A DNA stretch of 48,913 bases, filler included, from Jimgerdemannia flammicorona (lineage: Eukaryota), in NCBI GenBank assembly GCA_003990765.1. It is 2 parts of 2 records of this genome, joined end to end, with 100 filler letters (N's around TTAATTAATTAA, not from the genome) between each part and the next. Parts side by side here need not be neighbours in the genome. Positions count along the whole stretch, not along the records: positions 1 to 24,411 come from RBNJ01000978.1; positions 24,512 to 48,913 come from RBNJ01000979.1. One strand, written 5' to 3'. Under the pieces are notes generated by a model. It was given only the letters and a program-made list of their open reading frames with translations. It was not told the DNA's origin and searched no databases. The position numbers and the translations under genes were made by a program. Below are positions 12,201-45,559 of the stretch, piece after piece. Every line of letters begins with the position of its first letter. Position 1 is the stretch's first letter.

Positions 12201-13291
12201 TGAAGAATGAGATATTTGAAAAATTTTGAAAATTTAAAGTAACTGTGGAAAATGAGACAGAATATAAGATATAGACTCTATGCTTAGACAATAGTAAGAA
12301 ATATATTAATAAAGCCTTTAGACACTTCTTGAAAAAGTACAATATCCAACACTCTATAATGCTCTATATATCTGAACAGGATAATATAGCAGAACTCTTT
12401 AATCAAATGATAGTAGAGATAGCTCAAATGCTGATGAACATGGCCAGCTTATTGTGTTTTATAAATACAGTAACATATATCCAAAAACATTATATTTCTT
12501 AAGCTCTAAGTAAGGATTCTAGTAGATCTAGCATATCTGATAATTATCAATCTAGGAATAATTAATAATCTAAGAATGATCAATAATTCAGAAATAATCA
12601 ATAATTTAGAAATAATAGTAATCTTACTCTCATGGAATTATAGAGTAGAGCTAAGCCAGATATCTTGGACCTATGGATATTTAGAAACAAGGTTTACATT
12701 CTGGATAAAAGCAGTAATAGAGACAAATTTGAGTATAAAGTAGATAAGTATATACTCCTTAGATATAACAGAGTAGTATATAGATTATGAAATCTACAGA
12801 AGTGCTATATAGTTATCTCTTATAATATTCAGTTCAATGAGATCAAAAAGCATAAAATTTATATAGATATTCCTATCTCAACCAACTCAATAGTATAGCT
12901 AGTGATATCTATGCTAATAATAAAAGTATCTCTAATATCTATATCAGTACTAGCATAATATATGCAAATGTCAATGAGACTATCAAAGCCAAGAATTATG
13001 GAAATTTTAGATAATAATAACAATAAGAATACCTCTCTAAAAGATATGAAAAAGTGCAAATCTAGACTACAAAATAAATTCAAAGTAGATTTAGAAAGTT
13101 ATTGGGACCAGTCTAAGATATCTCATTATAGATATTATGCAAACTATATCTATGAGTATATATATATAGTAATGATAGATGAGCCAGTATACTATAATGA
13201 AGAAAATATAAAAAAGAGTGGAAAAAGACTATATATAAGGAATATGATTCACTTATTGAGAGTGATATCTGAGATCTCTCTCTTTTAGTAG

Positions 13292-14498
13292 TGTGATAAG
13301 CCAAAAACGTATCACTTGAATTATAACTTAGCCAAATGATGTGAACAATTAGTAACTTAGCCAGATGATGTAAACAATTAGTAACTTAGCCAGATGATGT
13401 GAATATATAGCAATCATTACTAGACTATCAGATAAGGTATATCTGTATGAGATCAGCATACTTGTGCAGAATCTGTACACCTGTGCAGAACCCACACACC
13501 TGTGCAGAACTTGCATACTTACTACAAATAGCAATCTATAGTTAGCAATGAAGTAACTAGTAGTAACTATAACTGTATAAAATACCCCAGAGATAAGAGC
13601 AAATAAATCTCAGTTTTGAATTATAAAGCAAAAGACAAGTCTGCCTACTATACTTTGAGAGATATACCTGCCAATAGCCACTTGATCCAGAAAGGATTGC
13701 AATACTTAGGAGAAACACCTGCTCTATAGCCACTACTAGGAGATTGTGAGCTTTGCCCCTTTCCCACTCTAGTCCACTTTCTGATATAAAGAACAAGTCT
13801 ATTTTTGGTTCACTTGCCAGATAAGTCTGAAGAAATCTGCCAAGTTCAAGGAAGAACTTCACTGCCTTTTGAGTTATCTGCCACCATTTGAAGAGAAACC
13901 CATCTTCCCAGAAGAATCCATGCTATCTGAGTTATTTCCCAGAGAGCTGCTGGTTAAGAAGAATCTGTGACATCTGAGTTACCCAAACTATCCAAATTAT
14001 CTGTGACATCCGAGTTATTAGTTTGTTCCCAGTAAGCCTGATACAGAATAATCTGCCACCAGTATTATTTCCAGTAAGCTGCCAATTCAGAAAGGATCTG
14101 TGCCATCCTCTGTTCCCAGTAAACTCATGCCCAAATTGAGTTATTCACAGAAATTGCATAAAGAGAACTGCCAAATTGCCAAGATCGTTATACCAGAAAT
14201 TGCATACTTTTAGAGATCATCGTGCTACACAGAGATCATCACACAGAGATTGCTGTCACTCAAGAAGGAAAACCACTAAATTGCCAGTCATATATAAATT
14301 ACTGCTACACCCAGAGAACCTGTCCCAATAAGAAAGATGCTCACAGATATCCAGCTTTGACTATTATACCACTAAACACCAAGGTCCTCAGGAATTCTAG
14401 AACATTTTATTGCTTTTAACAAAGTAACTGAGGGCTCAAGCCAAACTACATCAACCCCCAATCTTGTAATTTGTCTCTATTGAGTCTGGTATATTATA
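13292..14498 (+). repeat. 5' LTR of Gypsy copy 1
   Basis: Direct repeat of 21690-22881. Starts TGTGATAAG and ends ATATTATA (mutated ATGTTACA). Confidence 0.92.
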
Positions 14499-14532
14499 TT
14501 TGAGAGCTCAACTGAGAAGATTTCAAATTGAC

Positions 14533-17500
14533 ATGACTTTTCAGCTCACAAAGAACCCACAGTCAAACTGGATACATTTGATACAACACCAATCTCTGCC
14601 ACCACAGGAGAACTAGTAATCACCAACATCTGGACAGGAAGAGAAGTAATCACCTTAAGACTTACCAACTATCCAGCATCAGAAGGATCCCAACCAGAAA
14701 TTAGTACAGCCCAAAATCCCCAATCAGATCAATCAGACAATACAGATAGTCCTGCTGGAGACTTTAGAGAACTTGCTCAAGAACTAGAAGATCTCATTGA
14801 ACTAGCTGGAAATCATGCAGCCAGATACTTCACAGCAGTTCCACTAATTTCACCCATAGAATGCTCATCTACAAGACCCAACTTAGAGAACTGGCCAGAG
14901 GAATTTTCCACCAAACAGTCAATGACCCACATTCAGAATTGGTAACAGAAATACAAGCAGCAGCCTCTTACCAGCTAGAGTATGCAGCCATGGTCCACTG
15001 GCTCATCAAAAAGTATGCAGGAAATGAAACCTGCTATAAGGCTCAAGAATCCATCATAGAGATGAAGATGAATCTTGGAGAATCACCCAGAGCCTTCTTT
15101 ACAAGAATCCAGAAGAGAATGCATGCAGCTGGGTTCAATGCCACCAACCAAGACATCATAGGACCAATGACCTTCATGAATGGAATCTCACCAAACATTG
15201 CTCAGTATGTCTGCACTCTAGGCATCAGAAGGCCTGAAGAGCAAGTAGATGTAGCTCAAGGATTCTTTGATGTTAAACAAGAAACTACCTGGAGTGACCA
15301 TGACAAGAAGGATGATAAAGAAGACATCCTGGTCAAAGTCCTACAAGGACTCCTTCAGGAATAAGAAAGATCTAAAGAAAGAAGACCAGCTAAGGAAGGA
15401 AAGAAGGACAGGAGTGAAATTCAAGACCTTAGCTTCAGGTTGGACCAACTGGTGGGACAGATTGAAAAACTCACTATATGCAAAAATCAGAGTTATCAAG
15501 AAAACAGAGGATATCCACCAAGGAACCAAGATTATCCACCAAAAGATAACAGGAACTATCAGCAAGAAGAAAGAAGATATCCTGTCCAAGACAGAACTCA
15601 AGTGTAATGCTCCCACTGTGGAAAATTTGGACACTATGCTACTGAATGTGATAACAAAAGAAGTGACTGAAAGGATTCAGAACCACCAAATTGAAGGAAT
15701 GAAACCCAGTACAAGAAGACTGAGGCCCATCCTGTTGAATACTTTGAAGAAGAGAGTAATAGTGAAGACTACAGTGATCTAGACTTGTACCCAACCAAAG
15801 TCAGTGCCCAGAGGACAGTTTACCCAGCAGAGAAAAGGAAGAGATCTGTTGGAAGGCCATCCAGGAATGTCAACAGAAGGATTATCCAGGAAGAAGATGA
15901 AGAATATAAAGAAGACCAGGTAGAAACACCTCTCTGATCCCCTTTACCTTTTGTCTTTAAGACAAATAAGTTACCACCAGAGGATGAAGAAATGGAATAA
16001 GAAGAATGAGAACCTACCACCCCAAAACCCAAGAAGAAGTACACATCCAAGACCATGCTCAGAGACATTTATAATGAAGCCTGGCAAAAGATTCAAGAGG
16101 CCAAGATGGAAGTCCCTCTCCTGCAGTTTCTATAACTAATACCAGCAGGAGTTTGAAACAAATCACTGAGGACTACTAGATCCAGCACTGGCTGAGTTCT
16201 AATCCCACAACAGGAGCCAGCCTCTATTCCTATCCAAGCTGCAGAAAGACATGTCAGCACTTATCTGTATAGAGATATTAGAGGACAAAAGGCAAAAATC
16301 CTCATAGACACAGAAGCAGCTATCTGTATTATTGCCAAACAATTCCTAGATACCCTTCAATGGCCCATTGATGGACCCTCCAACCTCAGCATCATAGTAG
16401 CAGATGGAGCCTGAACTCAGCCTCTTGGAGATGTGCAAAACATCACCATCTCTCTGAGACACATTCAGTTCTCCATTCCAAAGGCTGTTGTTACCAAAGT
16501 TATTACCTATAACATGATTCTTGGTACCAACTGGATGAAGGAAATGAATACAGTTGTTGATATCAGTCAACAAGTACTCAGAGGCAGGAAGTACAGAGTT
16601 AAGGTGACCAGCTATGAGTAATCAAAGAAGAAGAAGAAAGTCACTATCCAGGAAGAGTATACCAGCAGTGAAGAATCTACCACAGAAGAAGAAGAAGAAT
16701 CCAAAGATGGAAATGACCCTAGACTCAATCCCCAAATCAACCTAGTAGATGACAGGCCAGCAGACAATGTATGGGTCCAGAATACTATTCCTATTACCAT
16801 CAGAGCCATTGCAGGAGAAATCAAAGGATGCCCTACCTGTCTCAAAATATACAAGTGCCCTGAGCACTCCTCCAAGATCATTGGACAAGGAATTCGCCTG
16901 GCACAGCCTGCCCCAAATGCAGGAGAAAGAAGAAGAATACAGATATGCCCCAGAAATACCTACAACTGAAGCTGCAGAAGTACAAGCAATTTTGAGACAA
17001 GAATCATCATCTGAAGAAGAAGCTCTTGACCAAGAAGTTCCTGAGCAAGAAGTACCCAAAGAAGAAGAGGTCCCTGAACTCATTCCCTGAGATAACCCTC
17101 ACTGGACACCACCCAAAGACAATGACCCTTGGAATATAGAAAAAGGACCCAGGATAATCCCCATTATTCATAAGAAAGAAACTCACCAAGAAAGAGCTTT
17201 TTGGCTAGGAAGATATTCACACCAAATGATCTTCCACTCTCTCCAAGACTACTGCTATCAGTGCCATCTACTAGACCAGTAAGAAAGATAGAGACCCCAA
17301 AGACCAGAACTACTAATTACAGTTTCACAGTCAACTACCTTCCAAGAAATGACCACCAAATTACAAAGTCAATCTAGAGGACAAGACTTCTTCATCCAAA
17401 CAGAAAAATATCTCCTATCTACTCTTCCCCCAATATATGATGAAGATGAATACTGATTTCCAAGACAGCAAGAGATCAACAACCAGGACCATCATTTCTG

Positions 17501-20500
17501 AGCAATGGAATATTGCAATTATGGAAGACATCCAGACTGCTATGACTGCAGACATCAGAAGATTCACCTCAGTCATAATGTTACAATCCACATCTTGAAG
17601 AGAGGAGATAATGGAAGCCAGATCCAAAAAAGCCAGACCAAGAAGCCAGAAAGAAGGACTCTCAAGATCTATGATTTAGAAGAAGACATCCTAGCTCTCA
17701 TCAGATATACAGCCTACCAAGGATGGGCAGAGGATGCCACCAATTTCACAGAAGCCCTAGACCCTACAGGAAGAAGAGGAATCAACTATCTCCAAGACCT
17801 CTCTACTGGAGCCAGGTGGATCTCAGAGCCTAGAGGCATTCTGCTAGTAGAGCCTCAGCCCTGGATCAGTCTGAGCTCAGCAAGGATATTGCCCAGTATA
17901 TCCTGCTGCATCTCAAGGCCAAACCCCTGACCAAAGCCCACCCAGAAGATGTAGGATATGATTTTTACAGTCTGGAGGATGAATATATCAAGTCTGGAAA
18001 AACATTCATTGTCAAAACTGGACTAGCCATGCAGCCACCCCAAGGAGCTTACATCCAACTGACCTCAAGGTCTGGACTTGCTAGACAAGGAATAACTGTA
18101 GAAGGAGGAACCATTGACCCAGAACATATAGGTGAAATTAAGGTCATCCTATATAACAGTAGTACAGAATGGCACCAAATCATTATAGGACAGAAGATTG
18201 CTCAAACAGTCTTCATGAAGATCAAGACCCTGCAGTTACAAGAAGTTTCTGAACTGACCAAAGGAATAAGACAAGCCAAAGGATTTGGAAGCTCAGATAA
18301 GAAGGAAGTACACCTCCTTTAAGTCAACCATCTCAAGAGAAATATCCCTCAGCAAGTATACTACCAACCAGTCAGACTGTACAAGAATCTTATCCTGGAG
18401 TCTGGAGAGCAAACCACCTTTGAAATCTTTACACCACCTTACCCCAGAAATCTCTTCTTCGAACCCGATGATGATATCCCAAATCTAGACATAAAAGAAC
18501 ACACATTTCCTGACAAGATAAACCCAGTACACTCCTGAGCAACCAACCAAAGTTCAGAAACTATCATCTTACCAGAGGAACTGTCATAGGACATCTGGTG
18601 CCCCTTCTCAACTGAACTCATAAAGAAGTTTATGAACTAAACATATCAGAAAATAGTAAAAGGTCTCAGAAGAAAGGAAAGGCCCCTCTGTAACCTAAGA
18701 AATAGTAAAGTCTTCCACCAATATTAGAGAAGAACTGACACCCCAACAATAGCAACAACTAATAGAACTCTTTAACAAATTTCAAGATATCTTCACTACT
18801 GACTATAGCAATCTGCCATACAACCCATCATATCATTATAGCATAAATACCAGAAATATAACACCCATTCAGCAGAAATCCTATAGAATACCTCATCACC
18901 TAAAGATATTTGAAAAGGAGCACATTCAAGAACTCTTGGATAATAGAGTCATCTGACCTTCAACCAGCCCCTGGGCCAGCCCTATACTTATTGTACCAAA
19001 GAAAGGAGGATAGAGACTATGTGTGGATTACAGGAAACTCAATTCAGTCACCAAAAAGGATGCCTATCCTTTGCCCAGAATCAATGATCTCTTGGATCAG
19101 TTACAAGATACCAGATACTTCAGCAGTATGGATCTTTTCACAGGATTCCACAAGATCCCCATGGATCCCAAGGACATTCAAAAGACAGTCTTTCTTGTCC
19201 TAGGAATACCTCTGAATGTCCTTTGGACTTTGCAATACACCCCCAACCTTTCAGAGGATGATGAATTCAGTCCTTGCCCCCTTGATCTACCACTGCCTGA
19301 TTATATATATAGATAATTCCAACATCTATTCAGCAAATTTTGAAGAATACCTGCACTACCTTGAGGAATTCTTCAAGCTCACCCACAAGAACCACTTGAG
19401 ACTCAATGCAAAGAAATGCTACTTTGGAAAACAGAAACTTGAATTCCTCAGATTCATAGTTTCAAAAGAAGGAACCCATGCAGACCCAAAAAAGAAAACT
19501 GAGAAGATCAACAATTGGCCAGTACCCAAGACCCCCAAGGAAACACTATCATTCCTGATACTAGTATCCTACTACAGAAGGTTCATCAAGCAATTTGCCC
19601 AAATCACTGCCCCAATCTGAATCCTTCTCAAGAAAGGAGTCCCTTACAAATAGACAGAATTACAAGAGAAAGTCTTCAAAGAACTCAAGAACTGTATGAC
19701 TACAGCACCAATTCTTGTGTGCCCCAATCTATAGAAGCCATTTATCTTATACATAGATGCTTCCAAAGATAGTCTAGGAGCAGTTCTAGCTCAAGAAGGA
19801 TCTGACCAACAGTATCATGTGATAGCTTATACAAGCTGAGCTACCAATCAGCAGCAGATGAACTATGGTAGCATCAAACTGGAATGCCTTGCAGTCATAT
19901 GGATGGTTACCCTGTTTAAGCATTATCTTATTAGAAAAAGGTTCACCCTGATCACAGACCATGTAGCTCTCAAATAGCTATTCAACCACAAGGAACCTAC
20001 TGGAATCCTAGTCCACTGGATCCTTATCCTTCAGGATTACAAAATCACCATCATCTACAAAGCAGGAAAAGCTCACAACAATGTTGATGTACTTTCCCAC
20101 CAGTCCCAATGAATAAGCTCCTCAGACCATCAAGACACAAGAAGACCTCATTTGAAAAGAACATCAGAAAGCCCACTAGGGACAAGCAAACATAGAAGAA
20201 AAGTTGTAAAGAATATACCAACATTGGTCTAATCTCAGAACACAAGTCCAGGATATACTCAAGAGATGTGATATCTACCAGAAGTACCAAAAAAGGAAGA
20301 ACTATCAAGCACTACTGCAACCAATCACACCACCAGACAACATCTTTCAGAGTTGGAGAGTAGACATAATTGGACCCCTACCAGTTATATCAAGAAGAAA
20401 CAAGTATATTCTTATATTAATAGAATATTTGACCAAGTGGCCTAAGGCTTTCTCAATGGAAATCACAGATGTCTTAACCATTGTGGGCCTTCTCCATAGA

Positions 20501-21150
20501 CTCACACTCAGATATAGACCCATGGAAGAACTCATCTCTGACTGAGACACAGAATTCATCAACAACATAATCATAAGTTATGCCTGAATTTATAAGATCC
20601 ACCTCAAATGGACCACATAATACCACCCCCAGACCAATGATATAACAGAAAGAATGAACCAGACCATCAAGAAAGGACTTGCCTGAGTCAATCCTACCAA
20701 CTGGGATCTCTGCTTACCTGAGATCCTATGGGAAATTCAGAACACCCCTGCTGCCTCCACTGAACAAAAGCCATTTGAGATGATGTTTGCCAGAAATACC
20801 CGAACTGATGACCCTGAGAACCTCAGAAACCTTTTCAAAAAGGTAGAATAGTTATATAATCACGCCCAAGTTCAGATTATCAAAGCCCAAGAAAGACAAA
20901 AGTAGTACTATGACCAGAAGCAGATGAATTAGGAGATCAAGATTGGAGACCAAGTACTAGTTTGAAGAAGTATGATTGAAACAAACTTTGCCACCAAATT
21001 GGAGCCCAAATGGAAAGGACCTTATCTTGTTCATAACATCAGAGGAACCAATATCTATTTAAGAAGCATAGATGGATGAACCCTAAGGACACCAGTACAC
21101 ATCAATTACCTCAAGAAATATCTCCCTCTATACTATAAACTGGAGAAATG
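14533..21150 (+). pseudogene. gag-pol of Gypsy copy 1 (many stops and frameshifts)
   Basis: Zn knuckle ..HCGKFGHYATEC (~15610); protease KAKILIDT(E)AA (~16290); RT PWASP, CVDYRKLN, YPLPRINDLLD, FGLCNTPPTFQ, YIDN; RNase H YTDAS; integrase WRVDIIGPLP, YHPQTN, KWKGPY. Confidence 0.92.
17906..18298 (+). CDS. dUTPase domain within pol (copy 1)
   Basis: All five dUTPase motifs: DVGYDF, TSRSGLA, GGTIDPEHIGEIKV, GQKIAQ, RQAKGFGSSD. Confidence 0.93.
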
Positions 21151-21649
21151 ACAACCATCTCCAGACCCTCATCCTCAGTTTATTGCAATCACTACCAGTT
21201 CCCATACCTCAATTCCAAGAAGTCAATGGGAATATCCTCTAGAAGATTTAGATTTATCAAGCAAATCTTACTTTGGCCAAACACCTATTATAGGTCCACC
21301 AACTTTAGACTCTTATACAATTGGAGATCAGTTGTAAGACCTTTTAGTCCCAGAGCAGACCTATATCAGAAACACCACAGGATTATTAAGAAGGGATGCT
21401 ACTGCTGCAGACAGGCTCTATACTCTTTACAAATGAAACCCTGCAGCCATGATCCAAGCACAATTCTCCTGGAATGACATATGAGAAATGAGTCTAGTCA
21501 CCTATCTGAGCATCATTAATGCTGTTGAAATCCTGTTCCCCAAAGAAGAAAAAGAGTCTCTGGAATGGAGTGACTATAGTACATATAATGAAGATGATGG
21601 TACAGGAATTGATACAAAAGATGCTTATACATTTTGAGATGATAACTAA
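21135..21649 (+). pseudogene. Extra ORF (ORF3) after integrase, copy 1
   Basis: (ATA)NWRNDNHLQTLILSLLQSLPVPIPQF...IQAQFSWND...ILFPKEEKESLEWSDYS...GIDTKDAYTF; homologous to 24847-25359. Confidence 0.75.
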
Positions 21650-21689
21650 ATGATAGTCTGAGGACAGACCATCCTTTAGTTGGGGCTGA

Positions 21690-22881
21690 TTTGATAAGTC
21701 AAAAATATATCACTTAAATTATAACTTAGCCAGATAATACAAACAATTAGTAACTTAGCCAGATGACATGAACACATAGCAACCATTGCTGCAGAAAACT
21801 GTATAAATAGCCAGACTACCAGATAATATATATCTATGCAGGACCAGCACACTTGTACAAAACCTGCATACCTGTGCAGAACCCTCACATCTGTGTGGAA
21901 CTTGTACACTTACCATATATAGCAATCTATAGTTAGCAATGAAGTAACTAGAAGCAACCACAACTGTATAAAATACCTCAAAGATAAGAGTGAATAAACC
22001 TCAGTTCCAAAACATAAAGCAAAAGACAAGTCTGCCTACTATACTTTGAGAGATATGCCTGCCAAAAGCCACTTGATCTAGGAAGGATTGTAACACTTAG
22101 GAGAAATGCCTGCTCTACAGCCACTACTAGGAGATTGTGAGCTTTGTCTCTTTCCCACTCTGGTCCTCTGATACAAAGAATAAGTACATTTTTAGTTTGC
22201 TTGCCAGATAAGCCTGAAGAAATCTGCCAGTTCAAGGAAGAACTTCACTGCCTTTTGAGTTATCTGCCACCATTTGAAGAGAAACCTGTATTCCCAGAAG
22301 AATCCATGTTATCTGAGTTATTTCCCAGAGAGCTACCTGTTAAGAATCTGTGATATTCAAGTTACCCAAGCTATCCAAATTATCTGTGATATCTGAGTTA
22401 TTAGTTTGTTCCCAGTGAGCCCAATACAGAATAATCCACCACCAGTATTATTTCCAGTAAGCCACCAATTCAGGAAGGATCTGCACCATCCTCTATTCCT
22501 AGTAAACCCACACCCAAATCGAGTTATGTGCAGAAATTACATAAGGAGAACTACCAAATCACCAAGATTGTCATGCCAGTAATTGCATACTTTTGGAGAT
22601 TGTTGTTCTATATAGAGATCATCACACAGAGATTGCCATCACTCAAGAAGAAAAACTGCTAAATGGCCAGTCATATATAAATCACCACTATACTCAGAGA
22701 ACCTGTCCCAATAAGGAAGTTGCTCACAGATATCCAGCTTTGACTATTATACTACTAAACACCAAGGACCTCAGGAATTCTAGAATATTTTGTTGCTTTT
22801 AACAAAGTAACTCGGGGCTCAAGCCAAACTACATCAACCCCTAACATTATAATTTACCTCTATTGAGCCTGGCATATTACA
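21690..22881 (+). repeat. 3' LTR of Gypsy copy 1
   Basis: Follows the PPT-like AGTTGGGGCTGA and ends ATATTACA, then GTAG. Confidence 0.92.
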
Positions 22882-24008
22882 GTAGATAGGTAAGCTATAG
22901 GATCAAAAAAGGTCTATAAGATCAAGCATAAAGCTGATGGAACAATAGAGTAATATAAGGCTTAATTTGTGGTAAAGAGATATTTATAAGAATATGATAT
23001 AGATTATAATAAGACCTTTCTCTTAGTATTTAAGCTTACTTTACTTAGAATACTTCTTATAATTAGAGCTAAATATGACTAGGAAATCTACCAAATAGAT
23101 ATTAAGCCAGTCTTCTTGAATAGTGATATAGATACAGAGCTATACATATGTCAATTACAAGGATACAAACTATATAATAACAGTAATGAGTTTATATATA
23201 AATTATATAAAGATCTCAATGGTATCAAATAACCAGCAAGGCTGTAGAACTGAAAAATTGACAAATATCTCTTAGATAATAGATTTAAGTATTGCAAGAC
23301 TAATATATATATATATACTTAACATATATCCTCAGAAACAGTATACCTTGGAATTTAGATAAATGATATCATTCTAGTTAAGATAGTAAGTGAGATTAAT
23401 TATATAAAGATAATACTATATTAGAAATTAAAGATGATAGATATGGATAATATATCCTCTCTTCTTGGAATATTAATAATACATATATGTATAACAGACA
23501 TAGGTATACTATTTATCTATTATAAGCTATATATATTCAGACTATACTCAATAATTTGGCATAAGCAAATATAAATTTATTGAAATCCCTATGGTGATAT
23601 CCATGAGGTTAAAGAAGTCCATTGATAATATATCTAAGGAATTCAATAATACTCTCTATCAGTAAGCTATTATATCTCTTATATATATATCTTATATTTA
23701 AGATAAGGTCTAATATATTATATATAGCCAACAAAGTGACACATTACTTATCCTGCTATAATAATTTACATTAGACAGCAATCAAGTACATTTTCTAATA
23801 CATTAAAGACATGGTATACTATATGCTCAGTTTAGATAATAATAAGAGGTAAAGTGAGAGTACTCTAAGGTTATCTGGTGTATATAAAATAGATTAGACT
23901 GACATCTGGATGACAGATAGTCTATGACTGAATACCTCCTTAAAATTAGTAAAAATGGAGTTATTTTATAACAAATACCAAACAAACTTTTATAGTAATA
24001 TTATCTAT

Positions 24009-24411
24009 TGTAACGTAGTGGACGCGGAATTTAGTAAGTTGGATGGATTTTGGAATTGGACTGGTTTGATCTGACTCGTTCTGACTCGTTCTGACTCGTT
24101 CTGACTGAGGTTTATTCACTCTAAAATACTGAGTTATTTATACAGATTTGTGTGCTAATTCTGCTACTAAATATGTGGCTAAGTATTAAGTCTTTTCATG
24201 TGAAATTCTCAGGTAGAATCTCATGTGAAATCCTATCTGAAATTCGTGAAAGTAACAAGAGTTTCACTGATAATGTTTTAGATACAGTGTCCGCAGTAAA
24301 AGACTATACTAAATCGGAAATTGGATTCAGGTACTATGATCAAATGTCTATTTCCTGTTTCTATTTCATACCATACGTCACATCTTCCCCCTGAATAGGT
24401 TATTTTTGACA
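24009..24411 (-). mobile_element. 3' LTR (24009-24382) and PPT of a short-LTR element related to 42369-44569, cut by the assembly spacer
   Basis: TGTAACG...CGTCACA termini. Adjacent TCTTCCCCCTGAATAGGTTATTTTTGA is the reverse complement of 44081-44107. Contains a 10-bp tandem TCTGACTCGT. Confidence 0.85.
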
Positions 24412-26916: not shown

Positions 26917-27039
26917 ATATTAAAATATAATAGACTTCTTAATATTATATGTATTAAAGACTATTTCATTTGTATAAACAGATTTATTATGAAGATACAT
27001 CTTATACTAGATTAGCTTTAAGTAGTAGACTTCTTCTTT

Positions 27040-32469: not shown

Positions 32470-32508
32470 TCAGCCCCTACTGAAGAGTAGTCTGTCTCAG
32501 ACTATTCT

Positions 32509-33015: not shown

Positions 33016-36000
33016 GGTATAGAGGAATATATAGTTTGAGGCAATTGATGTGTACCAGTGTTCTCAGGGTTCATCCATCTATGCTTCTTAAATAGATGCT
33101 GGTCCCTCTGATATTGTGTACAAGATAAGGTTCTTCTTATTTTGATTCCAGTTTGGCAGCAAACTTTGTCTCAATCATGCTTCTCCAAACTAGGACTTGA
33201 TCTCTAATCTTGATCTCCTGATCCTTCTGTTTTTGGTTATAGTACTTCTTTTGTCTTTCCTGAGCTTTGATAATCTGTCCTTGGGCTTGATTATATAACT
33301 GTTCTGCCTTTTTGAAGAGGTCTCCAAGATTCTCATGATCAGCAGTTCTGGTTCTCTTAACAAACATCATTTCAAATGGCTTTTGTTTGGTGGAGGCAGC
33401 AGGGGTGTTCCAAATTTCCCATAGGATCTCAGGTAAGCAGAGGTCCCAATTAGTAAGATTGACTCAGGCAAGTCCTTTCTTGATGGTCTGGTTCATTCTT
33501 TCTATCATACCATTGGTCTGGGGGTGGTATGATGTGGTCTTTTTGAGGTGGATCTTGTAAATTTGGGCATAACTTGTGATTATGTTATTGATGAATTCTG
33601 TGCCTCAATCAGAGATGAGTTCTTCTGGAGGTCCATATCTGAGTGTGAGTCCATGGAGAAGGCCTACAATGGTTAAGGCATCTGCGATTTCCATTGGGAA
33701 AGCCTTGGGCCACTTGGTCAGATGTTCTACAAATACAAGAATGTATTTGTTTCTTCCTGGGGTAACTGGTAGAGGCCCAATTACATCTACTCTCCATCTC
33801 TGAAAGATGTGAGTGGGTGGGGGAATTGGTTGCAAGGGGGCTTGATAGTTCTTCTTTTCTTGGTACTTCTAGCAAGTGTCACATTTCTGGATAATGTCTT
33901 GGACTTGAGTTCTGAGGTGGGGCCAGTGTTGATACAGTTTTTGAATCTTGTCTTCTGTACTTGTCTGTCCTTGATAGGCTTTCTGATATTCTTATCAGAT
34001 GAGATCTTCTTATTCCTTGATGGTCTGAGGAGCTTCCTTTAGGGTGTAGTTCCTCAGGACACCCTTCTTCTAGTTCATTGGAGCTGGTGGGAAAGTACAT
34101 CAATATTGTTGTGAGCTTTCCCTGCTTTGTGGATGATAGTGATTTTGTAATCCTGAAGGATAAGGATAAGGATCTAGCGGACTAGGATTCTAGTGGGTTT
34201 CTTACAGTTGAATAACTATTTGAGGGCTGCATGGTCTGTGATCAGGGTGAACCTTTTTCTGATGAGATAATGTTTGAACAGGGTGACCACCCATATGACT
34301 GCAAGGCATTCCAGTTTGGTGCTACCATAGTTCATCTGCTGCTGATTGGTGGCTCTGCTTGCATAAGCTATTACATGGTGCTATTGATTGTATCTTTCTT
34401 AGGCTAGAACTGATCCGAGGCCATCTTTGGAAGTATCTGTATATAAGATGAATGGTTTCTGTAGATTGGGGCACACAAGGATTGGTGCTGTAGTCATGTG
34501 GTTTTTGAGTGCTTTGAAGGCTTTTCCTTATAATTCTGTCCATTTGAATGGCACTTCTTTCTTGAGAAGGATCTGGATTGGGGCAGTGATTTGAGCAAAG
34601 TTCTTGATAAACCTTCTGTAGTAGGATACTAGCATCAGAAATAATAGTATCTCTATTGGGGTTTTGGATACTGACCAATTGTTGATCTTCTCAGTTTTCT
34701 TTGGGTCTGTATAGATTCTTTCTATTGAAACTATGAATCCAAGGAATTCAAGTTTCTGTTTTCCAAAGTAGCATTTCTTTGCATTCAGTCTCAAGTGGTT
34801 CTTGCAGGTGAGTTTGAAGAATTCCTTTAGGTGGTACAGGTGTTCTTCGAAATTTGCTGAGTAGATGTTGGAATCATCCATGTATACAATCAGGCAATGG
34901 TGGATCAAGGGGGCATAGACTGAATTCATCATCCTCTGGAAGGTGGGGGGTGCATTGCAAAGTCCAAAGAGCATTCGGAGGTACTCAAACAGTTTTCCTA
35001 GAGCAAGGAAGGCTGTCTTTTGAATGTCTTTGGGGTCCATGGGGATCTTATGGAATCCTGCGAAGAGGTCCATACTGCTGAAGTATCTGGCATCTTATAA
35101 CTGATCCAAAAGGTCATCGATTCTGGACAGAGGATAGGCATTCTTTTCTGTAACTGAATTGAGTTTCCTGTAATCTATACAAAGTCTCCATCCTCCTTTC
35201 TTTGGTACAATAAGTATAGGGCTAGCCCAAGGGCTGATAGAGGGTCAGATGACTCCATTGTCTAAGAGTTCTTGGATGTGCTCTTTTTTGAATGTCTTCA
35301 AGTGATGGGGTATTCTATAGGATTTCTGCCGGATGGCTGTAGTATTTTCTGTATTTATGCTGGGGTGGTATAATGGATTGTAGGGCAGGTTGCCATAATT
35401 GGTGGTGAAGATATCTTGATATTTGTTGAGAAGTTCTGCTAGTTGTTGTTGTTGTTGAGGTATCAATTCTCCTCCAATGTTGATGGAAGGCTTGACTGTC
35501 TCTTGGGTCGCAGAGGGGCCTTTCCTTTCTTCTGGGACCTTTTGCTGTTTCCCAATAGGTTTAGTTCATAAACTTCCCTATGAGTTCGGTTGAGAAAAGG
35601 CACCATATGTCCTATGATGTCCTATGATGGTTCCTTTTGGCAAGATGATGGTTTCCCAACTTTGGTTGGTTGCTCAGGAGTGTACTGGATTCATCTTGTC
35701 AGGGAATGTATGCCTCTCTATGTCTAGGTGTGGGATATCTTCCTTGGGCTCAAAGAAAAGGTTTCTGGGGTTGGGTGGTACAAAGATTTCAAATGTGGTT
35801 TGTTCTCCAGGTTCCAGGATGAGGTTCTGGTGTAGTCTGACTGGTTGGCAGTACACTTGCTGGGGAATATTCCTCTTAAGGTGGTTGACTTGAAGGAGAT
35901 GTACCTCCTTCCTGTCTGAACTTCCAAATCCCTTAGCTTGTCTTGTTCCTTCAGTTAATTCAGAGACTTCCTGTAGCTGTGGAGTCTTGACCTTCATGAA

Positions 36001-39000
36001 GACTACTTGGGCAATCTTCTGTCCTCTAATGATTTGATGCCATTCTGCACTGCTGTTATGTAGGATGACCTTGATTTTGCCTATATATCCAGGGTCAATA
36101 GTTCCTCCTTCTACAGTTATCTCTTGTCTGGCAAGTCTGGACCTTGAGGTCAGTTGAATATAAGCTCCTTAGGGTAGCTACATGGCTAATCCGGTTCTGA
36201 TCATGAAGGTTTTTCCAGGCTTGATAGATTCATCCTCCAGGCTGTGAAGATCATATCCTACATCCTCTGGGTAGACTTTGGTCAAGGGTTTGGCCTTGGG
36301 GTGCAGCAGGACATACTGGGCAATATCTTTACTGAGTCCAGGCTTTTCTAAGGCTGAAGCTCCACTAGCAGAGAGCCTCTAAGCTCTATGGTTGAGGTGT
36401 AGCCATCTGGCTCCAGTAGAGGGGTCTTGGAGGTATTTGATTCCCCTCCTTCCTATAGGGTCAAGGGCTTCCATGAAGTTGGTGGCATCTTCTGCCCATC
36501 CTTGGCAGGTTGCATGTCTGATGAGAGCTAGGATGTCTTCTCCCAGATCATAGATCTTGAGGATTCTTTTTCCAGGCTTCTTGGTCTGGCTTTTTCGAAT
36601 CTGGCTTTTTTGGATCTGACTTCAGTTATCTCCTTTCTTCAAAGTGTGCACTACAACATCATGACTGAGGTGAATCTTCTGGTGTCTGCAGTCTCAGCAG
36701 TCAGGGTATTTCCCATGGTTGCAATATCCCATTGCCTGAAAATGATGTTCCTGGCTATTTGTCTCTTGTTGTCTTGGGAATTGGTATCTATCTTGATTAT
36801 AGGTTGGGGGAAGAGTGGACAAGGGATATATTTCTATTCAGGTGAAGAAGCCTTATCCCCTAAATCGACTTTGTAACCTTATGGTGACTTCTTGAAAGGT
36901 GATAGACTATGCAAGAGTAGTTGGGGGTTCTGGTCTCTGAGGTCTCTGTCTTTCTTATTGGTCCAACAGATGACACTGATAGCAGTAGTCTTGGGGAGAG
37001 TGGAAGACCATTTGGTGCAGACATCTTTCTAGCCAAAAAGCTTTCTCTTAGTGAGTTTCTTTCTTGGGAATAATGGCGATTATACTGGGTCCTTCTTCTG
37101 TATTCCAAGGATTATTGTCTTCAGGTGGTGTCTAGCAAGGGTCATTCCAGAGAATGAGTTCGGGGACCTCTTCTTCATCAGGTGCTTCTTGTTCAGGAAC
37201 TTCTTGGTCAGAAGTTTCCTCTTCCCCAGATGATTCTTGTCCCCAGATTGCTTACACTTCTGCAGCTTCAGTTGCAGGTGTTTCTGGAATATGTCTGCAT
37301 TTCTTCTTCTTCCTCCTGCACTCTGGGCAGGCTGTGCCAGGCGATTTCCTTGTTCCTATGATCTTGGAGGAGTGCTCAGGACACTTGTATCTCTTGAGAC
37401 ATATAGGGCATCCTTTGGCTTCTCCTGCAATAGCTCCTATGGTAATAGGGATAGTGTTCTTGGCCCACACATTATCTTCTGGTCGGTCATCCACCAGATT
37501 GATTTGGGGATTGAGTCTGGGATCATTTCCATCTTCAGATTCTTCCTCTTCTTCTGTGGTGGATTCTTCACTACTGGCATACTCTTTCTGAATAGTGACC
37601 TTCTTCTTCTTCAATTGCTCATAACTGGTCACCTTAACTCTGTACTTCTTGCCTCAGTAGTCAAACTTGAGTACTTGTTGGCTAATATTGACAACTGCAT
37701 TTATTTCCTTCATCCAGTTGGTATCAAGAATTATGTCATAGGTGACAGCTTCAGTGACAACAGCTTTGGGAATAGAGAACTGAATGTGTCCAAGAGAGAT
37801 GGTGATATTTCATACTTCTTCAAGGGGTTGAGTTCAGGCTCCATCTGCTACTATGATGCTGAGGTTGGATGGTCCATCAATGGGCCATTGAATGGTGTAC
37901 AGAAACTGTTTGGTGATGACACAGACAGCTGCCCCTGTGTCTATGAGAATCTTCGCCTTTTGTCCTCCAATATCTCCATGTAGGTAGGTGCTGACATGTC
38001 TTTCAGCTGCATGAACAGGGATGGGAACTGGTTCTTGCTGTGGGATTGGGACTTGGCCAGTGCTAGAACTGGTGGTTCTCAGTAATTTGTTTCGAACTCC
38101 AGCTGGTGTCAGTTGCAATAGCTGCAGCAGAGAGACTTCCATTTTGGCTTCTTGAATCTTCTGCCAGGCTTCATTATAAATGTCTCTAGGCATGGTCTTC
38201 AGAGTGTACTTCTTCTTAGGCTTTGGAGCAGCAGGTTCCTGTTCTTTTTGTTCCATTTCTTCATCTTCTGGTGGCAACTCATTTGTCTTAGGGACAAAAG
38301 GTGAGGGGGTTCAGAGAGGTGTTTCTACTTGTTCCTCCTCATGTTCTTCATCCTCTTCTTCGATAATTCTTCTACTGATGTTCCTGGATGGTCTTCCTAC
38401 AGGTCTCTTTCTTTTCTCTGCTGGATAGACTGTTTTCCAGGTTATAACCTTAGTGGGGTATAAGTCTAGGTCACTGTAGTCTACACTGTTGCTTGCTTCT
38501 TCGAAATCTTCAACAGGATGGGCTTCAGTCTTCTTGTACTGAGTGTCATTCCTTTGGTTTGGTGGTTCTGAGTCCCTTGGGTCACTTCTTTTATTATTAC
38601 ATTCAGTAGCATAGTGTCTGAATTATTCACAGTGGAAGCATTGAACCTGGGCTCTGTCTTGGACAGAGTACCTTCTTTCTTCATACTGGTAATTCCTGTT
38701 ATCTCTTGGTGGATAACCTTGGCTCCTCTGTGGTGGATATCCTCTATTGCCTTGGTAGCCCCGATTTTCACATGTAGTGAGTTTTTCAATCTGTCCAACC
38801 AATTGGTCCAGCTTAGAGCTAAGGTCTTGGATTTCACTTCTGTCCTTCTTTTCTTCCTTGGCTGGCCTTCTTTCCTCAGATCTTTCTTGTCCTTGAAGGA
38901 GTCCTTGCAGGGCTTTGACCAGGATATCTTCTTTATCTTCTTTTTTGTCATGATCACTTCAGGTAGTTCCTTGTCTGACATCAAAGAATCCTTGGGCTAT

Positions 39001-39990
39001 ATTTACTTGCACTGGGCAATATTTGGGGGAATCCCATTCATGAAGGTCATTGGGCCTATGATGTCCTGGTTGGTGTCATTGAACCCAGCAGAATACATTC
39101 TCTTCTGGATTCTTGTGAAGAAGGCTCTAGATGATTCTCCAAGATTCATCTTTATTCCCATAATGGATTCCTGAGCCTTGTGGCAGATTTCATTTCCTGC
39201 ATACTTTTCAATGAGCCAGTGGACCATGGCCTCATATTCCAGCTCATTAGACATTGCTGCTTATATCTGTCTTGCTAGTTCTGAATCTCAGTTGTTTGCT
39301 GTTCAATGGAAAATTCCTCTGGCTGGTTCTCTGAGCTGGGCTTTGTAGATGGTGATTTTTCTTTCATCTGAGAGATTTCTTAAGGCAGTAATTCCTTCAA
39401 TTCCATCAAGGAATTCTCTGGGATCTTCCTCTGGGTATCCTGCTAAAATTGGCAATGAGGTGGCCATCTCGTCATCACTTTCTTCTGATTCTGGTTCAAG
39501 TTCAGATTCTGATTCTGATTCACTTTCTGAACTGTCACTAGAGATAGGAGTGCTTGGGTATCTTGAGGATAGTGTTCTAGTTCTTGGACAGAGTGAAATA
39601 GGCCTAGGTATTCTTATAAGAGCTACTTCTGGTTCTGCAAGGAGTTGTGGTAGGGGTTCTATTGGTGAGATTAGTGGGACTGGTGTGCAGTGTCTGGCTG
39701 TAAAGTATTGGGTTTGTGTGATATGATTTTCTGGTTCTTGTACAAGTTCTCCAAAATCTCTAGCAGGGCTGTCTGTATTGTCTGGTTGATCTGGTTGGGG
39801 ATTTCAGGCTATACTGCCTTCTGGTACTGGTTGGGATCCTTCTGATGCTGGGTAATTGGCAAGTATTGAAGTAATTACTTCTCTTCCTATCCAGATACTG
39901 GTGATAACTGGTTCTCCTGTAGTAGCAGAGGTTGGTGTTATATCAAATATATCCAGCTTGACTGTGGGTTCTTGTGAGCTGAAAAGTCAT
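33000..39990 (-). pseudogene. gag-pol of Gypsy copy 2
   Basis: KAKILIDTGAAVCVI (protease); LFGLCNAPPTFQ and VYMDD (RT); FQRWRVDVIGPLP...EELISD (integrase). Confidence 0.92.
35913..36306 (-). pseudogene. dUTPase domain within pol (copy 2, two stops)
   Basis: DVGYDLHS, TSRSRLA, GGTIDPGYIGKIKV, GQKIAQ, RQAKGFGSSD. Confidence 0.9.
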
Positions 39991-40004
39991 GTTGATTTGA
40001 AATC

Positions 40005-40022
40005 TTTCCAGTTGAGCCCCCA
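40005..40022 (-). promoter_or_regulatory. Primer-binding site, probably tRNA-Pro
   Basis: TGGGGGCTCAACTGG directly after the 5' LTR. Undoing CpG decay gives TGGGGGCTCGACCGG, close to the tRNA-Pro PBS TGGGGGCTCGTCCGGG. Copy 1 has TGAGAGCTCAACTGAG at ~14501. Confidence 0.7.
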
Positions 40023-40024
40023 AA

Positions 40025-41373
40025 TATAATGTGCCAGCTCAATGGAGGTAAATTACAAGGTTGGGGGTTGATATAGTTTGGCTTGAGCCCCTAGTTACTT
40101 TGTCAAAAAGCAACAAAATGTTCTAAGATTCCTGAGGTCCTTGGTGTTTAGTGGTATAATAGTCAAGCTAGATGTCTGCAAGTAGTTTCCTTATTGGGAT
40201 GGTTCTCTGGGTGTAGTGGCAATTCATGTCTTTCCTTCTTGGGTCAATCTGGGAATGGCAGAATTTGTGTGTAGTATGAGCAGTTTCCTTCTTGAGTAGT
40301 AGGTGATTTCTGTATAGTATGACGATCTTATACATGACAGTCTGGTAATTTAGTGGTTCTCCTTATGCAATTTCTGTGTGATAATCTCTGTGTAGCATGG
40401 GCTTCCTTATGTAGGACATTCTGATAATTTAGCAGATAACTCGATTTGGCTCACTGGGAATAGTATAGCATGGATTCTTTGAATCAGGCTTACTGGGAAC
40501 AAATTATAACTCAGATGTCACAGGTTTTCTTGGAATACAGATGACTTGAAAATAGCAGATGATGTGGATTCTCCTAAATTGGCAGACTTCTTGAAAAAAG
40601 AACAGCTTCAACTGGGAATAACTTGGATGGCATGAGTTCTTCCAGATTGGGCTCTTCTGGGAATATGAACAACTGGCGGTGTTCTTTGGGAAAGGGTCTC
40701 TTGGCAAAGTTACATCAAAGACTGGCTTCATTTGCATGGGATTATATCAATAGACTAGCTCTACTGCAAAGTTGCATCAACAGACTGGCTTGTGGCAAGA
40801 ATAGAGCTCTCTGGGAATGTAGCAAATGACTTGGAAATGGTGGCGAAGTTCTTCCTTGAACTTGGGTGGCAAATCAGCTTTGTATCAGAAAGTGGACTGG
40901 AGTGGAAGAGAAGAGGACCAAGCTCACAACTTCTTGGTAGTGGCTCATTGGCAGGTATATCTCCTAAGTATTGTAATCCTTCCTGGATCAAGTGGCTTTT
41001 GGTAAGTGTTTCTCTTAAGTGTACTAGACAATTGACTTTTGCTTTGATTAGTATTCAACTTTTGGACTGAGGTTTATTCACTCTTGTCTCTGGGGTAATT
41101 TATACAAGTTGGTTGCTATCTGATTACTATGTGACTAACTATAGATTTGCTATCTATGGTATGTTTGGGCGGACAGTTACTGTCCGGCAGACAGCCACTG
41201 TCCAAGGAATAGCCACTGTTCACATTATTGCCTTCTTTGGCTATCTGGTTATTTATACATTTTTCCATAGTAATGATTGCTGGTTACTAAGCTATGTGTT
41301 CACATCATCTTGGCTAATTGTTCATGTCATCTGATTGAGATATAATTCAGATGGTACATCTTGATTTATCATA
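40025..41373 (-). repeat. 5' LTR of Gypsy copy 2
   Basis: Direct repeat of 31120-32469; termini mutated (TG>TA, CA>TA). Confidence 0.92.
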
Positions 41374-42368
41374 CTATATAATAATAAGTCTTATGAATGA
41401 GAAAATTTATTATGAAAATAGTGGTAATAATAATAAAAAAGTATTCTATAGATTATATTAATGAGATAAGAAGTACTAATAAGGTCAAAAATATAAATTT
41501 AAGTTTGATAGCAATTATTATTACTATAGTAAATATAAATATATATAAAATGATTACTATTGTAAAAATAAGTATAAAGATCAGTATTGGTAATATGAGA
41601 GCAGTAGAAAAAATTGAGAGAATGATAAAGAACAATATAATACAAATACTACCAAAACTGATAATAATTAAGATAGAGGTATATTTTATATATAAATACT
41701 ACATATCAAGTATCTGAAAAATTTGAGACAATAAAAAATAATAATGTCAATAGTAAAGTATATACATACTAATATAACTAATAATAATAATATATAGCTT
41801 ATAGATTCTAGTACTATATAATATATAACAGTCTATAGGAAATAATTTTCCATGTACAAGCTATTTAAGTATTTAGTACAAATTAAATTAGATAATAATA
41901 ATATTATATATACTTAAGAAAGAGAAAATATTAGCATATATCTCTATGAGAATATTGCAGAGCTTGCTAGTACTTTTTAGAATATATTATATACTCTGAA
42001 GATAGACAAGAATCTCTTCTCAATTGATAAAATAATAATCTATGATAATAAAGAAATATATATATTCATATCTAATAGATTCAGAAAAATTTTGTAAAAT
42101 TAAAATTTTTTAAATTTTTAAACTTTTTTTGACTATATTTATTATAAATTTTCAATAAAAATATTTTGTAAAAAAATTAATTTTGTAATTTTTTTTTTTT
42201 TTAATCTCATATTTATTAATAAAAGTATATAATAAAAAATAAAATAAAAAATTATAAAATTTAAATTTTTTTTTAACTTTATATTTATAAGTAAATTTTC
42301 TTTTTACATATATAAAAATTATATATTATTTTTCAAACTATATACAGTTGCTTTCATTGGATATATAG

Positions 42369-44569
42369 TGTGATGTATGGTATGAAATTGAAATAGAAAA
42401 CAGACACTTGATCACATCCAGTCCCAAAGTAGTATAGCTACATAGTTAGCAGTTCTTGATTTCACCACTTGCTAAATATTTCACAAAGTGTGAGATCAAG
42501 CTTCTCAATATAGTATAGCATTTTGCAACTGGTGAAATATTTTGCAAAGTGTTAAATGACTCATAATTTAGCCATGTAACCCAGTAACCATCTCATAGCT
42601 AGCAAACTTATATAAATAACCCAGTATCTTCAAGTGAATAAACCTTAGATCAAAATAGTTCAAAGCAAAGAGATAGTAAAGGAACTAGTAAGCCTGTGAG
42701 CAGATACACTTCAAACTCACCCACTCTCCCCTACAACTCAAAGGACTCTGAGGAGTCAGAGAAGATCAAGTTTTCAAGATACAGAAATCTGACATACTTT
42801 CAAGAGTAAGCATCTGCTACATTACAACTTAGTGTCCATTGGCTGGTGATTCAAGATGAATCCTCACTTTTAAGCTGAAAAATGAACAACTGCCAGACTG
42901 CCAGACCACCAGACTGCCATACAGACCATCATGTTACATATGGTATTTGTCTGTACCATCTGCTGTTAATTGGTTGTTCTGGTTGTCAGCCTCATTTCTG
43001 TGAACCATCATTGGTATTGAACAATAGACGCTCTGCAAAGGACTGCATCATTGAGTTAATAGCCAGGTTGCTCTTTAGTTCGAGGGACAACATTATAAGA
43101 ATTAATCACCAAAACGCTGAATAAACTGCCATATGAATGGACCACTATGGAGAATTAAAAGACATTGTATATGAACCACCTGACATAAGAATGCTGCCTG
43201 ACTTTGGATGACATACAAATGGAATGGACTGCCCCAAAGAATTAAAAAGACATCATATACAAACTACCTGAGTGAAGAATACCACCCAAGTGAAAAATCC
43301 CACCCAACTTTTGAAGATACGAATGCCACCTGTCATGCATTGTATTCATCTCTACACCATCTGCTGTTAATTGGTTGTTTCGGTTGTCAGCCTCATTTCT
43401 GTGAACTGTCATCAGTATTGAACAATAGATGCTCTGCAAAGAACTGCATCATTGAGTTAATAGCTGGGTCACTCCTTAGTTTGAGAGACAATGTTACAAG
43501 AATTAATCACCAAAATGCTGAACAAACTGTCATGCGAAGGACTGCCATGGAGAATTAAAAGACATCATATACAAACTGCCCAAGATGATATACGAATAGA
43601 CTGCCCCAAAGAATGGAGAAGTCATTATATATGAACTGTCTAAGTGAAGAATACTGCCCAAATAGACTGTCATGAAGAATTAAAAGACATCATATATAAA
43701 CCGCCCAAGTGAAGAATGCTGCCTGACTTTTGAAAAATGCCGTCATCTGACTTTTGATGACATATGAATGCCTGAACTGACCTGGAGAATTAAAAGACAT
43801 CATATAAACCACCCAAGAGAAGATGCCGTCCGACTTTTGATGACATATGAATGCCTTCTGACATATGAACACCACCCAATTTTTGAAGACACCATCACCC
43901 GACTTTTGAATATGTTGTCGGACTTTTGATGACATTCTGAATTAATTATTTGAAGACTTTTTTTTGAGACCTTGAAAAACATTCTGACAACCACTTGGAT
44001 ATAATATTATAAACAAGTCTATGTAGGGGGAACAAATGTATAAACATTGCAATATAAGAATTTGAATAGGTATTTTTGTATCAAAAATAACCTATTCAGG
44101 GGGAAGATGTGATATATGGTACATATGAAATTGAAATAGGGAACAGACACTTGATCGCATCCAGTCCCAAAGTAGTATAGCCACATAGTTAGCAGTTCTC
44201 AATTTCACCACTTACTAAATATTTTGCAAAGTGCAAGATCGAGCTTCTCAATATAGTATAGTATTTTGCAACTGGCGAAATATTTCACAAAATGTTAAAT
44301 GACTCATAACTTAGCCACATAACCCAGTAACCATCTCATAGCTAGCAAACTTGTATAAATAACTCAGTATCTTCAAGTGAATAAACCTCAGATCAAAATA
44401 GTTCAAAGCTAAGAGATTGCAAAGGAACTAGTAAGCCTGCAGGCAGATACACTTTGAACTCACCCACTCTCCCCTGCAACTCAAAGGACTCTGAAGAGTT
44501 AGAGAAGATCAAGTTTTCAAGATACAGAAATCTGATGCACTTTCAAGAGTAAGCATCTACTATGTTACA
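42369..44569 (+). mobile_element. Non-autonomous LTR element (large TRIM/LARD-like, 2.2 kb)
   Basis: LTRs 42369-42826 and 44108-44569 (TG..CA); TSD ATAG; PPT AGGGGGAAGA; repetitive internal region without gag/pol motifs. Confidence 0.9.
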
Positions 44570-45559
44570 ATAGATATATAGTATATTTTTTAAGTATTGA
44601 GCAAGAAATCTAACAATAATAATAAATATTTTAGAGATAATAATCTAACTTCTGAGAAATTATAGACTAAAGCTAAATCTGATATATCATATCTATATAT
44701 ATATTCAGATATAATATATATATTCTCAATAAGAGTAATACTAATTAATATAAGTTTAAGCTAAAAGTTAACAAGTATATATTTTTTAGATATTTTAATA
44801 AGAAATATTAACTCTGAAATCTATACAAGTATTATATAGTTATATTATATAATATATAGTTTAATAAAAATAAAAATAAGAAGAAGATTTATATAAATAT
44901 ATTGATTAGAACTTCTATATTAATCTTTATCAAATTTAGAAACTAGTACTAATCTCTTTAATAAAGTAAAATTATTTTTAACTACTATATATATCTAAGC
45001 TAAGAATAATAGAGATTAAGAATAATAAGACCTCTGATAATAATAAAGAGTTTATCAAAGATAAGAAAAAGCCAAAGTATAAGTCTAAAAACAAAACTCA
45101 TTCCAATTTAGAGAGTAATTGAAATATATCAAAGATCTCTTGATATAAAGACTATATGAACTATATATATTAAAATATATAAATTGATATTTATTAAAGT
45201 TCTTAAGTTACATATTTTATATATTACTAATAAATAATGTAAATCTGATAAAATAGCATAATTAAGTATTATATATCAAGTTACTATCTTAACACTCTCA
45301 CTCAATAAGATATATATCTAAAGGTAGAAAAAAAAAAAAGAGTAAAAAGCAATATAATGTATACAAAAACTAGAACTATATAATTCAGAATGATAACTAA
45401 TATAAAATCCTATATTTAAGAAATTTTCATAGGTTGAAAAGTATTCCAAAATATCTGAAATATCTACAAAATATAATATATATAATCTGCTCATAAATTA
45501 GGAATATCAAAGTATATATTATATAGTAAGAGAGGCCTTTGTAGTCTGAAAAATATCTC

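Follow-up and report, generated by a model that had tools for sequence, protein, structure and literature searches.

Do separate long terminal repeat (LTR) retrotransposons of a fungal genome enter one and the same short DNA word, and always the same way round? The question is raised by a stretch of 48,913 nucleotides from Jimgerdemannia flammicorona (GCA_003990765.1), hereafter the window, in which the DNA that follows the 3' LTR can be read for seven elements, called A to G here. Judging by their sequence, they are decayed LTR retrotransposons of the Ty3/gypsy type, because reverse transcriptase (RT), RNase H, and integrase occur in that order. A preliminary description of the window had pointed to a shared oriented site, RTAG-ATA, at independent insertions and had ascribed it to a sequence-selective integrase common to autonomous and non-autonomous families. 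We re-read the junction strings by script, with the bases given 5' to 3' in element orientation after the 3' LTR, and confirmed that RTAGATA directly follows the LTR at five of the seven junctions (A, B, C, E, and D), all at the positions described. The best reading of this pattern, and in our judgement a rather probable one, is a sequence-selective capture of the target by the integrase complex, probably in an oriented manner.

Target sites and duplications at seven LTR junctions

The RTAG duplication is confirmed by its two copies. All three complete elements (A, B, and C) present a 4-bp duplication, GTAG/GTAG, ATAG/GTAG, and ATAG/ATAG respectively, as previously described; the two copies of B differ by one G/A transition in a TpG context, which fits the regional mutation pattern (Table 1). 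The empty sites reconstructed from these flanks are CTTTTA-GTAG-ATAGGT for A, TATTAT-RTAG-ATATAG for B, and GGATAT-ATAG-ATATAT for C, in agreement with the TTA-GTAG-ATA and TAT-RTAG-ATA proposed before.

TA occupies duplication positions 2-3 at every junction, and ATA stands at +5 to +7 in six of the seven. Base 8 is not conserved at the five motif sites (G, T, T, C, A), and conservation ends at base 7. Both junctions that deviate from the motif, F and G, had already been named as exceptions.

Element boundaries were set by repeat finding, blastn, and a scan in purine/pyrimidine space, which is blind to transitions. Sequence comparison places A, B, E, and F in a single dUTPase-bearing lineage; the LTRs of C, D, and G make up a second group. 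The LTR ends are fixed, because the internal junctions to the primer-binding site (PBS) and the polypurine tract (PPT) define them. In A and B, the PBS TGGGGGCTCAACTGG begins 2 nt past the LTR (the LTR ends in ...GTTACA, then come TT and the PBS; in B it lies inward of 40024). A, B, E, and F have the PPT GGGGCTGA directly before TGTGAC, whereas C and D have GGGGGAAGA. The LTR tips, read directly from the LTR pairs of A, B, and C, are TGTGAY...TTACA, some of them decayed to TA, and TGTGAY...AYRTTACA is common to both LTR groups. Soil-metagenome contigs contain an undecayed tip, GGCACGTTACA, that continues into the A/B PBS.

Other ways of delimiting the site were tried. A 5-bp duplication is possible for A alone (with an LTR that ended in C, AGTAG would stand on either side) and fails for B and C. 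RTAG as a part of the LTR was ruled out by the internal junctions ...CTGA/TG and ...ACA/TTTGGGGG. The frame of the copia element that hosts A ends upstream at 13291 and its RT frame starts at 22882, one base off for a 4-bp duplication; this host is decayed, and 440 nt separate its last domain match from the junction.

An eighth LTR end was seen in fragment H (about 27053-27519, minus strand), an A/B/E-type LTR fragment that lies inverted directly after F and may have been the target of F. ATAT immediately precedes the start of this fragment, and the upstream sequence has a partial likeness to the internal end of such elements. We left this fragment out of the junction count, as it may be a 3' LTR and not a host junction.

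Table 1. Junctions, duplications, elements, and other features of the window, with positions along the whole stretch and junction bases in element orientation
Feature	Position	Strand	Remarks
A 3' junction	22882	+	GTAGATAG
B 3' junction	31119 leftward	-	GTAGATAT
C 3' junction	44570	+	ATAGATAT
D 3' junction	24008 leftward	-	ATAGATAA
E 3' junction	2021 leftward	-	ATAGATAC
F 3' junction	26917	+	ATATTAAA; exception
G 3' junction	9269	+	TTATATAC; exception; LTR end ambiguous in TA-rich sequence
A duplication, 5' copy GTAG	13288..13291	+	
A duplication, 3' copy GTAG, then ATA	22882..22888	+	duplication 22882-22885
B duplication, 5' copy ATAG	41374..41377	-	read on minus strand
B duplication, 3' copy GTAG, then ATA	31113..31119	-	duplication 31116-31119, read on minus strand
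C duplication, 5' copy ATAG	42365..42368	+	
C duplication, 3' copy ATAG, then ATA	44570..44576	+	duplication 44570-44573
D 3' flank ATAGATA	24002..24008	-	read on minus strand
E 3' flank ATAGATA	2015..2021	-	read on minus strand; surrounding DNA not AT-decayed
F 3' flank ATATTAA	26917..26923	+	motif exception
G 3' flank TTATATA	9269..9275	+	motif exception
Element A	13292..22881	+	decayed autonomous Ty3/gypsy with dUTPase domain
Element A LTRs	5' LTR 13292-14498, 3' LTR 21690-22881	+	85% identical
Element A domains	dUTPase 17834-18322, RVT_1 19014-19620, integrase H2C2 20210-20545	+	Pfam
Element B	31120..41373	-	A lineage; internal part 80.7% identical to A over 6948 nt
Element B LTRs	3' LTR 31120-32469, 5' LTR 40025-41373	-	90% identical
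Element C	42369..44569	+	non-coding; LTRs 42369-42826 and 44108-44569, 90% identical, ~460 nt
Element D	24009..24382	-	3' LTR, C-like group; PPT CAGGGGGAAGA before LTR; body enters N runs
Element E	2022..3515	-	A/B-type; 3' LTR 2022-3261 and ~250 nt internal; truncated at ~3515
Element F	24512..26916	+	A/B-type, 5'-truncated at N runs; internal 24514-25398, 3' LTR 25399-26916
Element G	about 8810..9268	+	heavily decayed 3' LTR, C/D-like group; PPT-like stretch before LTR
G-associated gypsy pol remnants	RNase H 6416-6763, integrase 7725-8006	+	upstream of G LTR
Decayed Ty1/copia element K	9272..13291, resuming 22882 up to D at 24008	+	split by A insertion
Glutathione S-transferase gene	28353-29252	+	~50% GC, intact among decayed repeats

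Chance, independence, and generic target preference

The recurrence of RTAG-ATA at these junctions is far beyond chance. The word RTAGATA occurs 66 times in the 97,826 strand positions of the window, and the junctions account for five of the 66. Its frequency is 1.1e-3 in the non-element background and 1.5e-3 where that background is AT-rich; at the latter value, the probability of meeting it at five of seven junctions is ~1.6e-13. We also used a motif-free statistic, the commonest-base counts summed over seven columns at the seven junctions (maximum 49). The observed column agreement was 42, against 25.4 ± 2.4 for random draws of seven sites from the AT-rich background, and none of 200,000 draws attained it (their maximum was 37).

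The insertions are independent, since their flanks share no homology: comparing ten flanks of 300 nt (45 pairs, E<=0.01) displayed just 10 matches, 14-58 nt long, out-of-register, and of AT-rich low complexity. The targets are also different sequences, because A was inserted inside the decayed copia element and D abuts it, F abuts the inverted LTR fragment, and B and C sit in anonymous AT-rich DNA. Coincidence, or copies that were duplicated with their flanks or all lie in one repeated target, could be suspected in a window that is AT/TA-rich and full of nested repeats. The draws and the flanks argue against both, as do the 81% identity between A and B, the membership of C and D in another LTR group, and a conservation that stops at base 7. 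We regard such an explanation as next to negligible.

The preliminary description had warned that the AT/TA-rich background inflates chance matches. This applies to the looser word NTANATA, whose background frequency is 1.65e-2, but not to the G at position 4. In the background, NTANATA words carry T at this position in 68% of cases and G in 14%, whereas five of the six NTANATA junctions carry G (probability ~3e-4, or ~0.01 after allowing for ~30 position-by-base looks). Moreover, the motif is retained at E although the E flank has normal GC.

These numbers also bear on a more ordinary alternative: a generic symmetric preference for a flexible TA centre with A/T flanks, exercised in TA-rich decayed DNA, with the position-4 G and the orientation as accidents of seven junctions. 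It would account well for the central TA at all seven junctions and for the ATA that follows the duplication at six, the exception G included, and F and G have at position 4 the very T that is commonest in the background. The symmetric consensus of prototype foamy virus (PFV)-type integration (PMC4422553) and the palindromic target motifs of Drosophila elements (PMC3276498), as given in the cited sections, are in line with it. It leaves unexplained the excess of G at position 4, present at five of seven junctions, with no mirror C at position 1 in any of ten duplication copies (seven 3' copies and three 5' copies). We consider this alternative unlikely.

Known integration systems share parts of the pattern. 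The PFV consensus, (-3)KWK\VYRBMWM(+6), goes with a 4-bp duplication and a flexible central YR needed for a sharp bend of the target, according to the cited part of PMC4422553. Among the complete elements, B (TAT-RTAG-ATA) and C (TAT-ATAG-ATA) fit this consensus at 10/10 positions and A (TTA-GTAG-ATA) at 9/10, so that TAT-RTAG-ATA satisfies all consensus positions, with the same 4-bp stagger and the same flexible pyrimidine-purine step at the centre. However, the PFV consensus is presented there as weak and symmetric, whereas the site here is near-fixed in 5/7 junctions and looks oriented, and PFV, a vertebrate retrovirus, is only distant kin of these elements.

The Gypsy group of Drosophila (297, 412) has 4-bp duplications as a clade property and AT-rich target motifs that reach ~3 bp past the duplication (PMC3276498, in the cited passages); thus, a duplication of this length is nothing exceptional among Ty3/gypsy elements in general. 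Since foamy-virus and Drosophila Gypsy-group sites are alike in this, a central TA with TAT/ATA flanks is the expected choice of a 4-bp-stagger complex. Unlike the palindromic motifs reported there (PMC3276498), the site here has a position-4 G that lacks a mirror partner at position 1, and the elements here have a dUTPase domain in pol and a fungal host. A palindromic duplication of the ZAM or 297 type is not what we found, as RTAG is not self-complementary.

ZAM, a Drosophila LTR retroelement whose integrase binds its target DNA directly at CGCGCg (PMC2527525, as excerpted), offers by analogy a precedent for an LTR-element integrase that reads a target word. It is likewise Ty3/gypsy-type with a short defined target, and its consensus has one asymmetric last base. 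By the same excerpt, it differs in a GC-palindromic core, in the need for a second binding site 40-56 bp away, and in its insect host and described similarity to vertebrate retroviruses (PMC2527525), whereas the site here is AT-rich, with a non-palindromic RTAG duplication, in a fungal host. Ty3 of budding yeast is also a fungal Ty3/gypsy element positioned with base-pair precision, but a host transcription factor, not a DNA word, directs it to Pol III genes (bioRxiv 10.1101/2021.07.27.453949, in the part cited). No tRNA genes and no Rfam families were found in the window, and a sequence-specific fungal gypsy element was not found reported in the limited collection of literature searched. Two features of the site stand out as unusual: it is a near-fixed word rather than a weak consensus, and it is asymmetric.

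Integrase complex or host factor

On the favored reading, a selective integrase complex, the Ty3/gypsy-type complex would cut its target with a 4-bp stagger and strongly favor TAT-RTAG-ATA, where the duplication has a flexible TA step in its middle and G at position 4 and is flanked by A/T triplets. We infer that the complex itself reads the target sequence. The central TA and the A/T flanks would help the target to bend as sharply as a 4-bp stagger requires, in the manner of the foamy-virus complex, and the position-4 G, with no mirror C at position 1, would mean that the complex handles its U3 and U5 sides differently, hence an oriented insertion. If the complex were symmetric, an asymmetric word should be used equally often in its two orientations. 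Here all five cases have the same orientation and none the opposite one, and this orientation is only suggested because five to nil gives p = 0.0625 (two-sided sign test).

That p value is one of several points that weigh against this reading. The sample is seven junctions from one 49-kb window, two of them (F and G) have no G at position 4, and the motif was defined post hoc, once the data had been seen. Transitions have heavily altered these regions, so that ACA or GTG could originally have stood where ATA, present in one copy only, now follows the duplication. The frames of the integrases are interrupted, and their specificity residues are therefore unreadable. An oriented site would also be atypical, as the target motifs of Drosophila LTR elements are all reported as palindromic in the cited passages of PMC3276498.

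The selective integrase that had been proposed thus stands in part: the site recurs far above the AT-rich background and occurs in the undecayed flank of E, while its oriented character depends on the five-to-nil count. A stronger version is possible, although we hold it as doubtful: an Endogonales-type Ty3/gypsy integrase complex that is near site-specific and truly oriented, reading the asymmetric 10-bp TAT-RTAG-ATA with the U5 end always beside TAG-ATA, and with a specificity common to two pol lineages ~30% identical. If true, it would contradict the rule of palindromic target motifs in LTR elements.

A host protein could set the site instead. AGATA, present in all five motif sites, is the core of a GATA-type zinc-finger site, and a DNA-binding protein of this type might tether the integrase at a fixed distance and orientation, as Ty3 beside TFIIIB. 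The orientation is the same in 5/5 sites, and one host factor would easily explain a site common to two pol lineages that are only 28-34% identical; the positional precision of Ty3 does come from a tether (bioRxiv 10.1101/2021.07.27.453949, in the part cited). Against this, the factor is hypothetical, and the base after GATA (G, T, T, C, A) displays no purine preference. Upstream of AGATA a T-A is conserved, and this, like the symmetric flanks TAT/ATA, resembles a bending requirement at the integrase level; a tethering domain was not found by Pfam in the B integrase. We judge a host tether very unlikely.

In the B integrase, Pfam detects H2C2, rve, and SH3-like parts, as is usual, but no additional DNA-binding domain. 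With stops read as X, the pol order on the minus strand of B is RVT_1 (E 5e-24), RT_RNaseH (2e-28), and H2C2 with rve (1e-7). Some 500 nt separate the SH3-like part from the PPT, and no chromodomain, the C-terminal mark of integrases of the chromovirus branch, matched at E<=0.1 in three frames of B downstream of the integrase, where the frames are decayed. A search with the integrase, read through stops, returned only matches of <=33% identity and no family placement.

Whether one integrase serves both groups was a further part of the earlier proposal, and this could not be established. The LTRs of C and D are related to that of G (73-77% over ~190 nt), and the pol associated with G differs from that of B (RNase H 34% and integrase 28% identical). 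C and D also differ from A and B in their PPT and in the PBS region after the 5' LTR, and by sequence their LTRs are not simple deletion derivatives of A/B. The matching LTR tips in both groups would make trans-mobilisation of C and D possible, and they could use the A/B-type integrase in trans via these tips. Equally, C and D could use a G-type integrase, related to that of A/B and alike in its preferences for tip and target, or the site could be set for both groups by a host factor.

Searches for further junctions and relatives were made in other sequence collections. Scanning metagenomes for an invariant LTR word of 16 nt yielded 121 loci, none of them a relative, with best blastn matches of 20-31 nt. 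Among viral contigs, an RT piece had no relative and the LTR tip no match, and the LTR tip had no match in prokaryote genome contigs either. The sequencing runs compared were soil metagenomes (word shares 0.12 and 0.08), with many A-type LTR contigs and near-identical D-LTR contigs. These runs gave no new target sites; among the loose ends listed, none was at a 3' junction.

In the same soils, contigs match the D LTR (24098-24367) nearly exactly (270 nt with three differences; 176 nt with one) and pile up on the A-type LTR end at 22727-22857 (summed word depth 738 in run X1). Thus, those soils would harbor this species or a sister one that carries many copies.

Surroundings of the elements and meaning of the site

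The GC content of the window alternates between stretches of ~40-54% and stretches of 20-30%. The two LTRs of a pair differ almost exclusively by transitions (transitions to transversions 139:31 in A, 125:8 in B, and 39:2 in C). These changes fall mostly in CpA/TpG and CpG contexts, and the GC content of older repeats has sunk to 20-25%. From its sequence, the decay looks like repeat-induced point mutation (RIP) or a deamination-type process, in an apparent Mucoromycota genome. To our knowledge, classical RIP is not established in Mucoromycota. A kingdom-wide RIP paper mentions them for genome size only, within the portion cited (PMC12543289).

The decay has spared the single-copy glutathione S-transferase gene, as its sequence indicates. 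The frame, 28398-28961, looks intact, and its product is 82% identical to a Jimgerdemannia flammicorona protein and 60% to an Endogone protein, which makes the host an Endogonales-like fungus (Mucoromycota). Together with the domain order, this host gene upholds the earlier description of the elements as fungal and Ty3/gypsy-type.

The dUTPase of A is PF00692 (E 2.4e-27), located within pol and upstream of the RVT_1 at 19014; this position, upstream of RT, is that found in the dUTPase-carrying fungal gypsy elements, and A would belong with them. C has an interior of repeats, with no frame >=120 aa listed. No 5' LTR for G appeared in the purine/pyrimidine-space scan. Two N runs (24412-24455 and 24468-24511, 44 N each) lie between D and F, where both elements lack their 5' parts. 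In the copia element K, Retrotran_gag_2, rve, and SH3_retrovirus precede A, and RVT_2 (E 2e-30) follows it at 22882-23488.

Further repeats were seen in the window. A GC-rich inverted repeat, 95% identical, occupies both ends (1-253 vs. 47544-47796), and a tandem array of 33-nt units lies at 5574-5837 (six overlapping 99-nt reference copies listed). Where E is truncated, at ~3560-4000 on the plus strand, a read-through translation starts that contains LVFLDQEKAYDRVW and LQGD..., with no Pfam match at E<=0.01; these strings presumably correspond to motifs of a non-LTR (LINE-type) reverse transcriptase.

LTR-element and retroviral integrases are generally weak, symmetric readers of their targets, and the few strongly selective LTR-element integrases that we know of are those of insect elements. 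If the genome-wide pattern were merely a TA-centred, AT-rich palindrome, the site would be an ordinary case of the known preference that goes with a 4-bp stagger. The site marks true element ends and would thereby aid the annotation of nested, decayed repeats in large Mucoromycota genomes. A near-fixed asymmetric 7-10-bp site in a fungal element, if true, would provide a natural system for understanding how an intasome distinguishes its two ends and reads the bases of its target.

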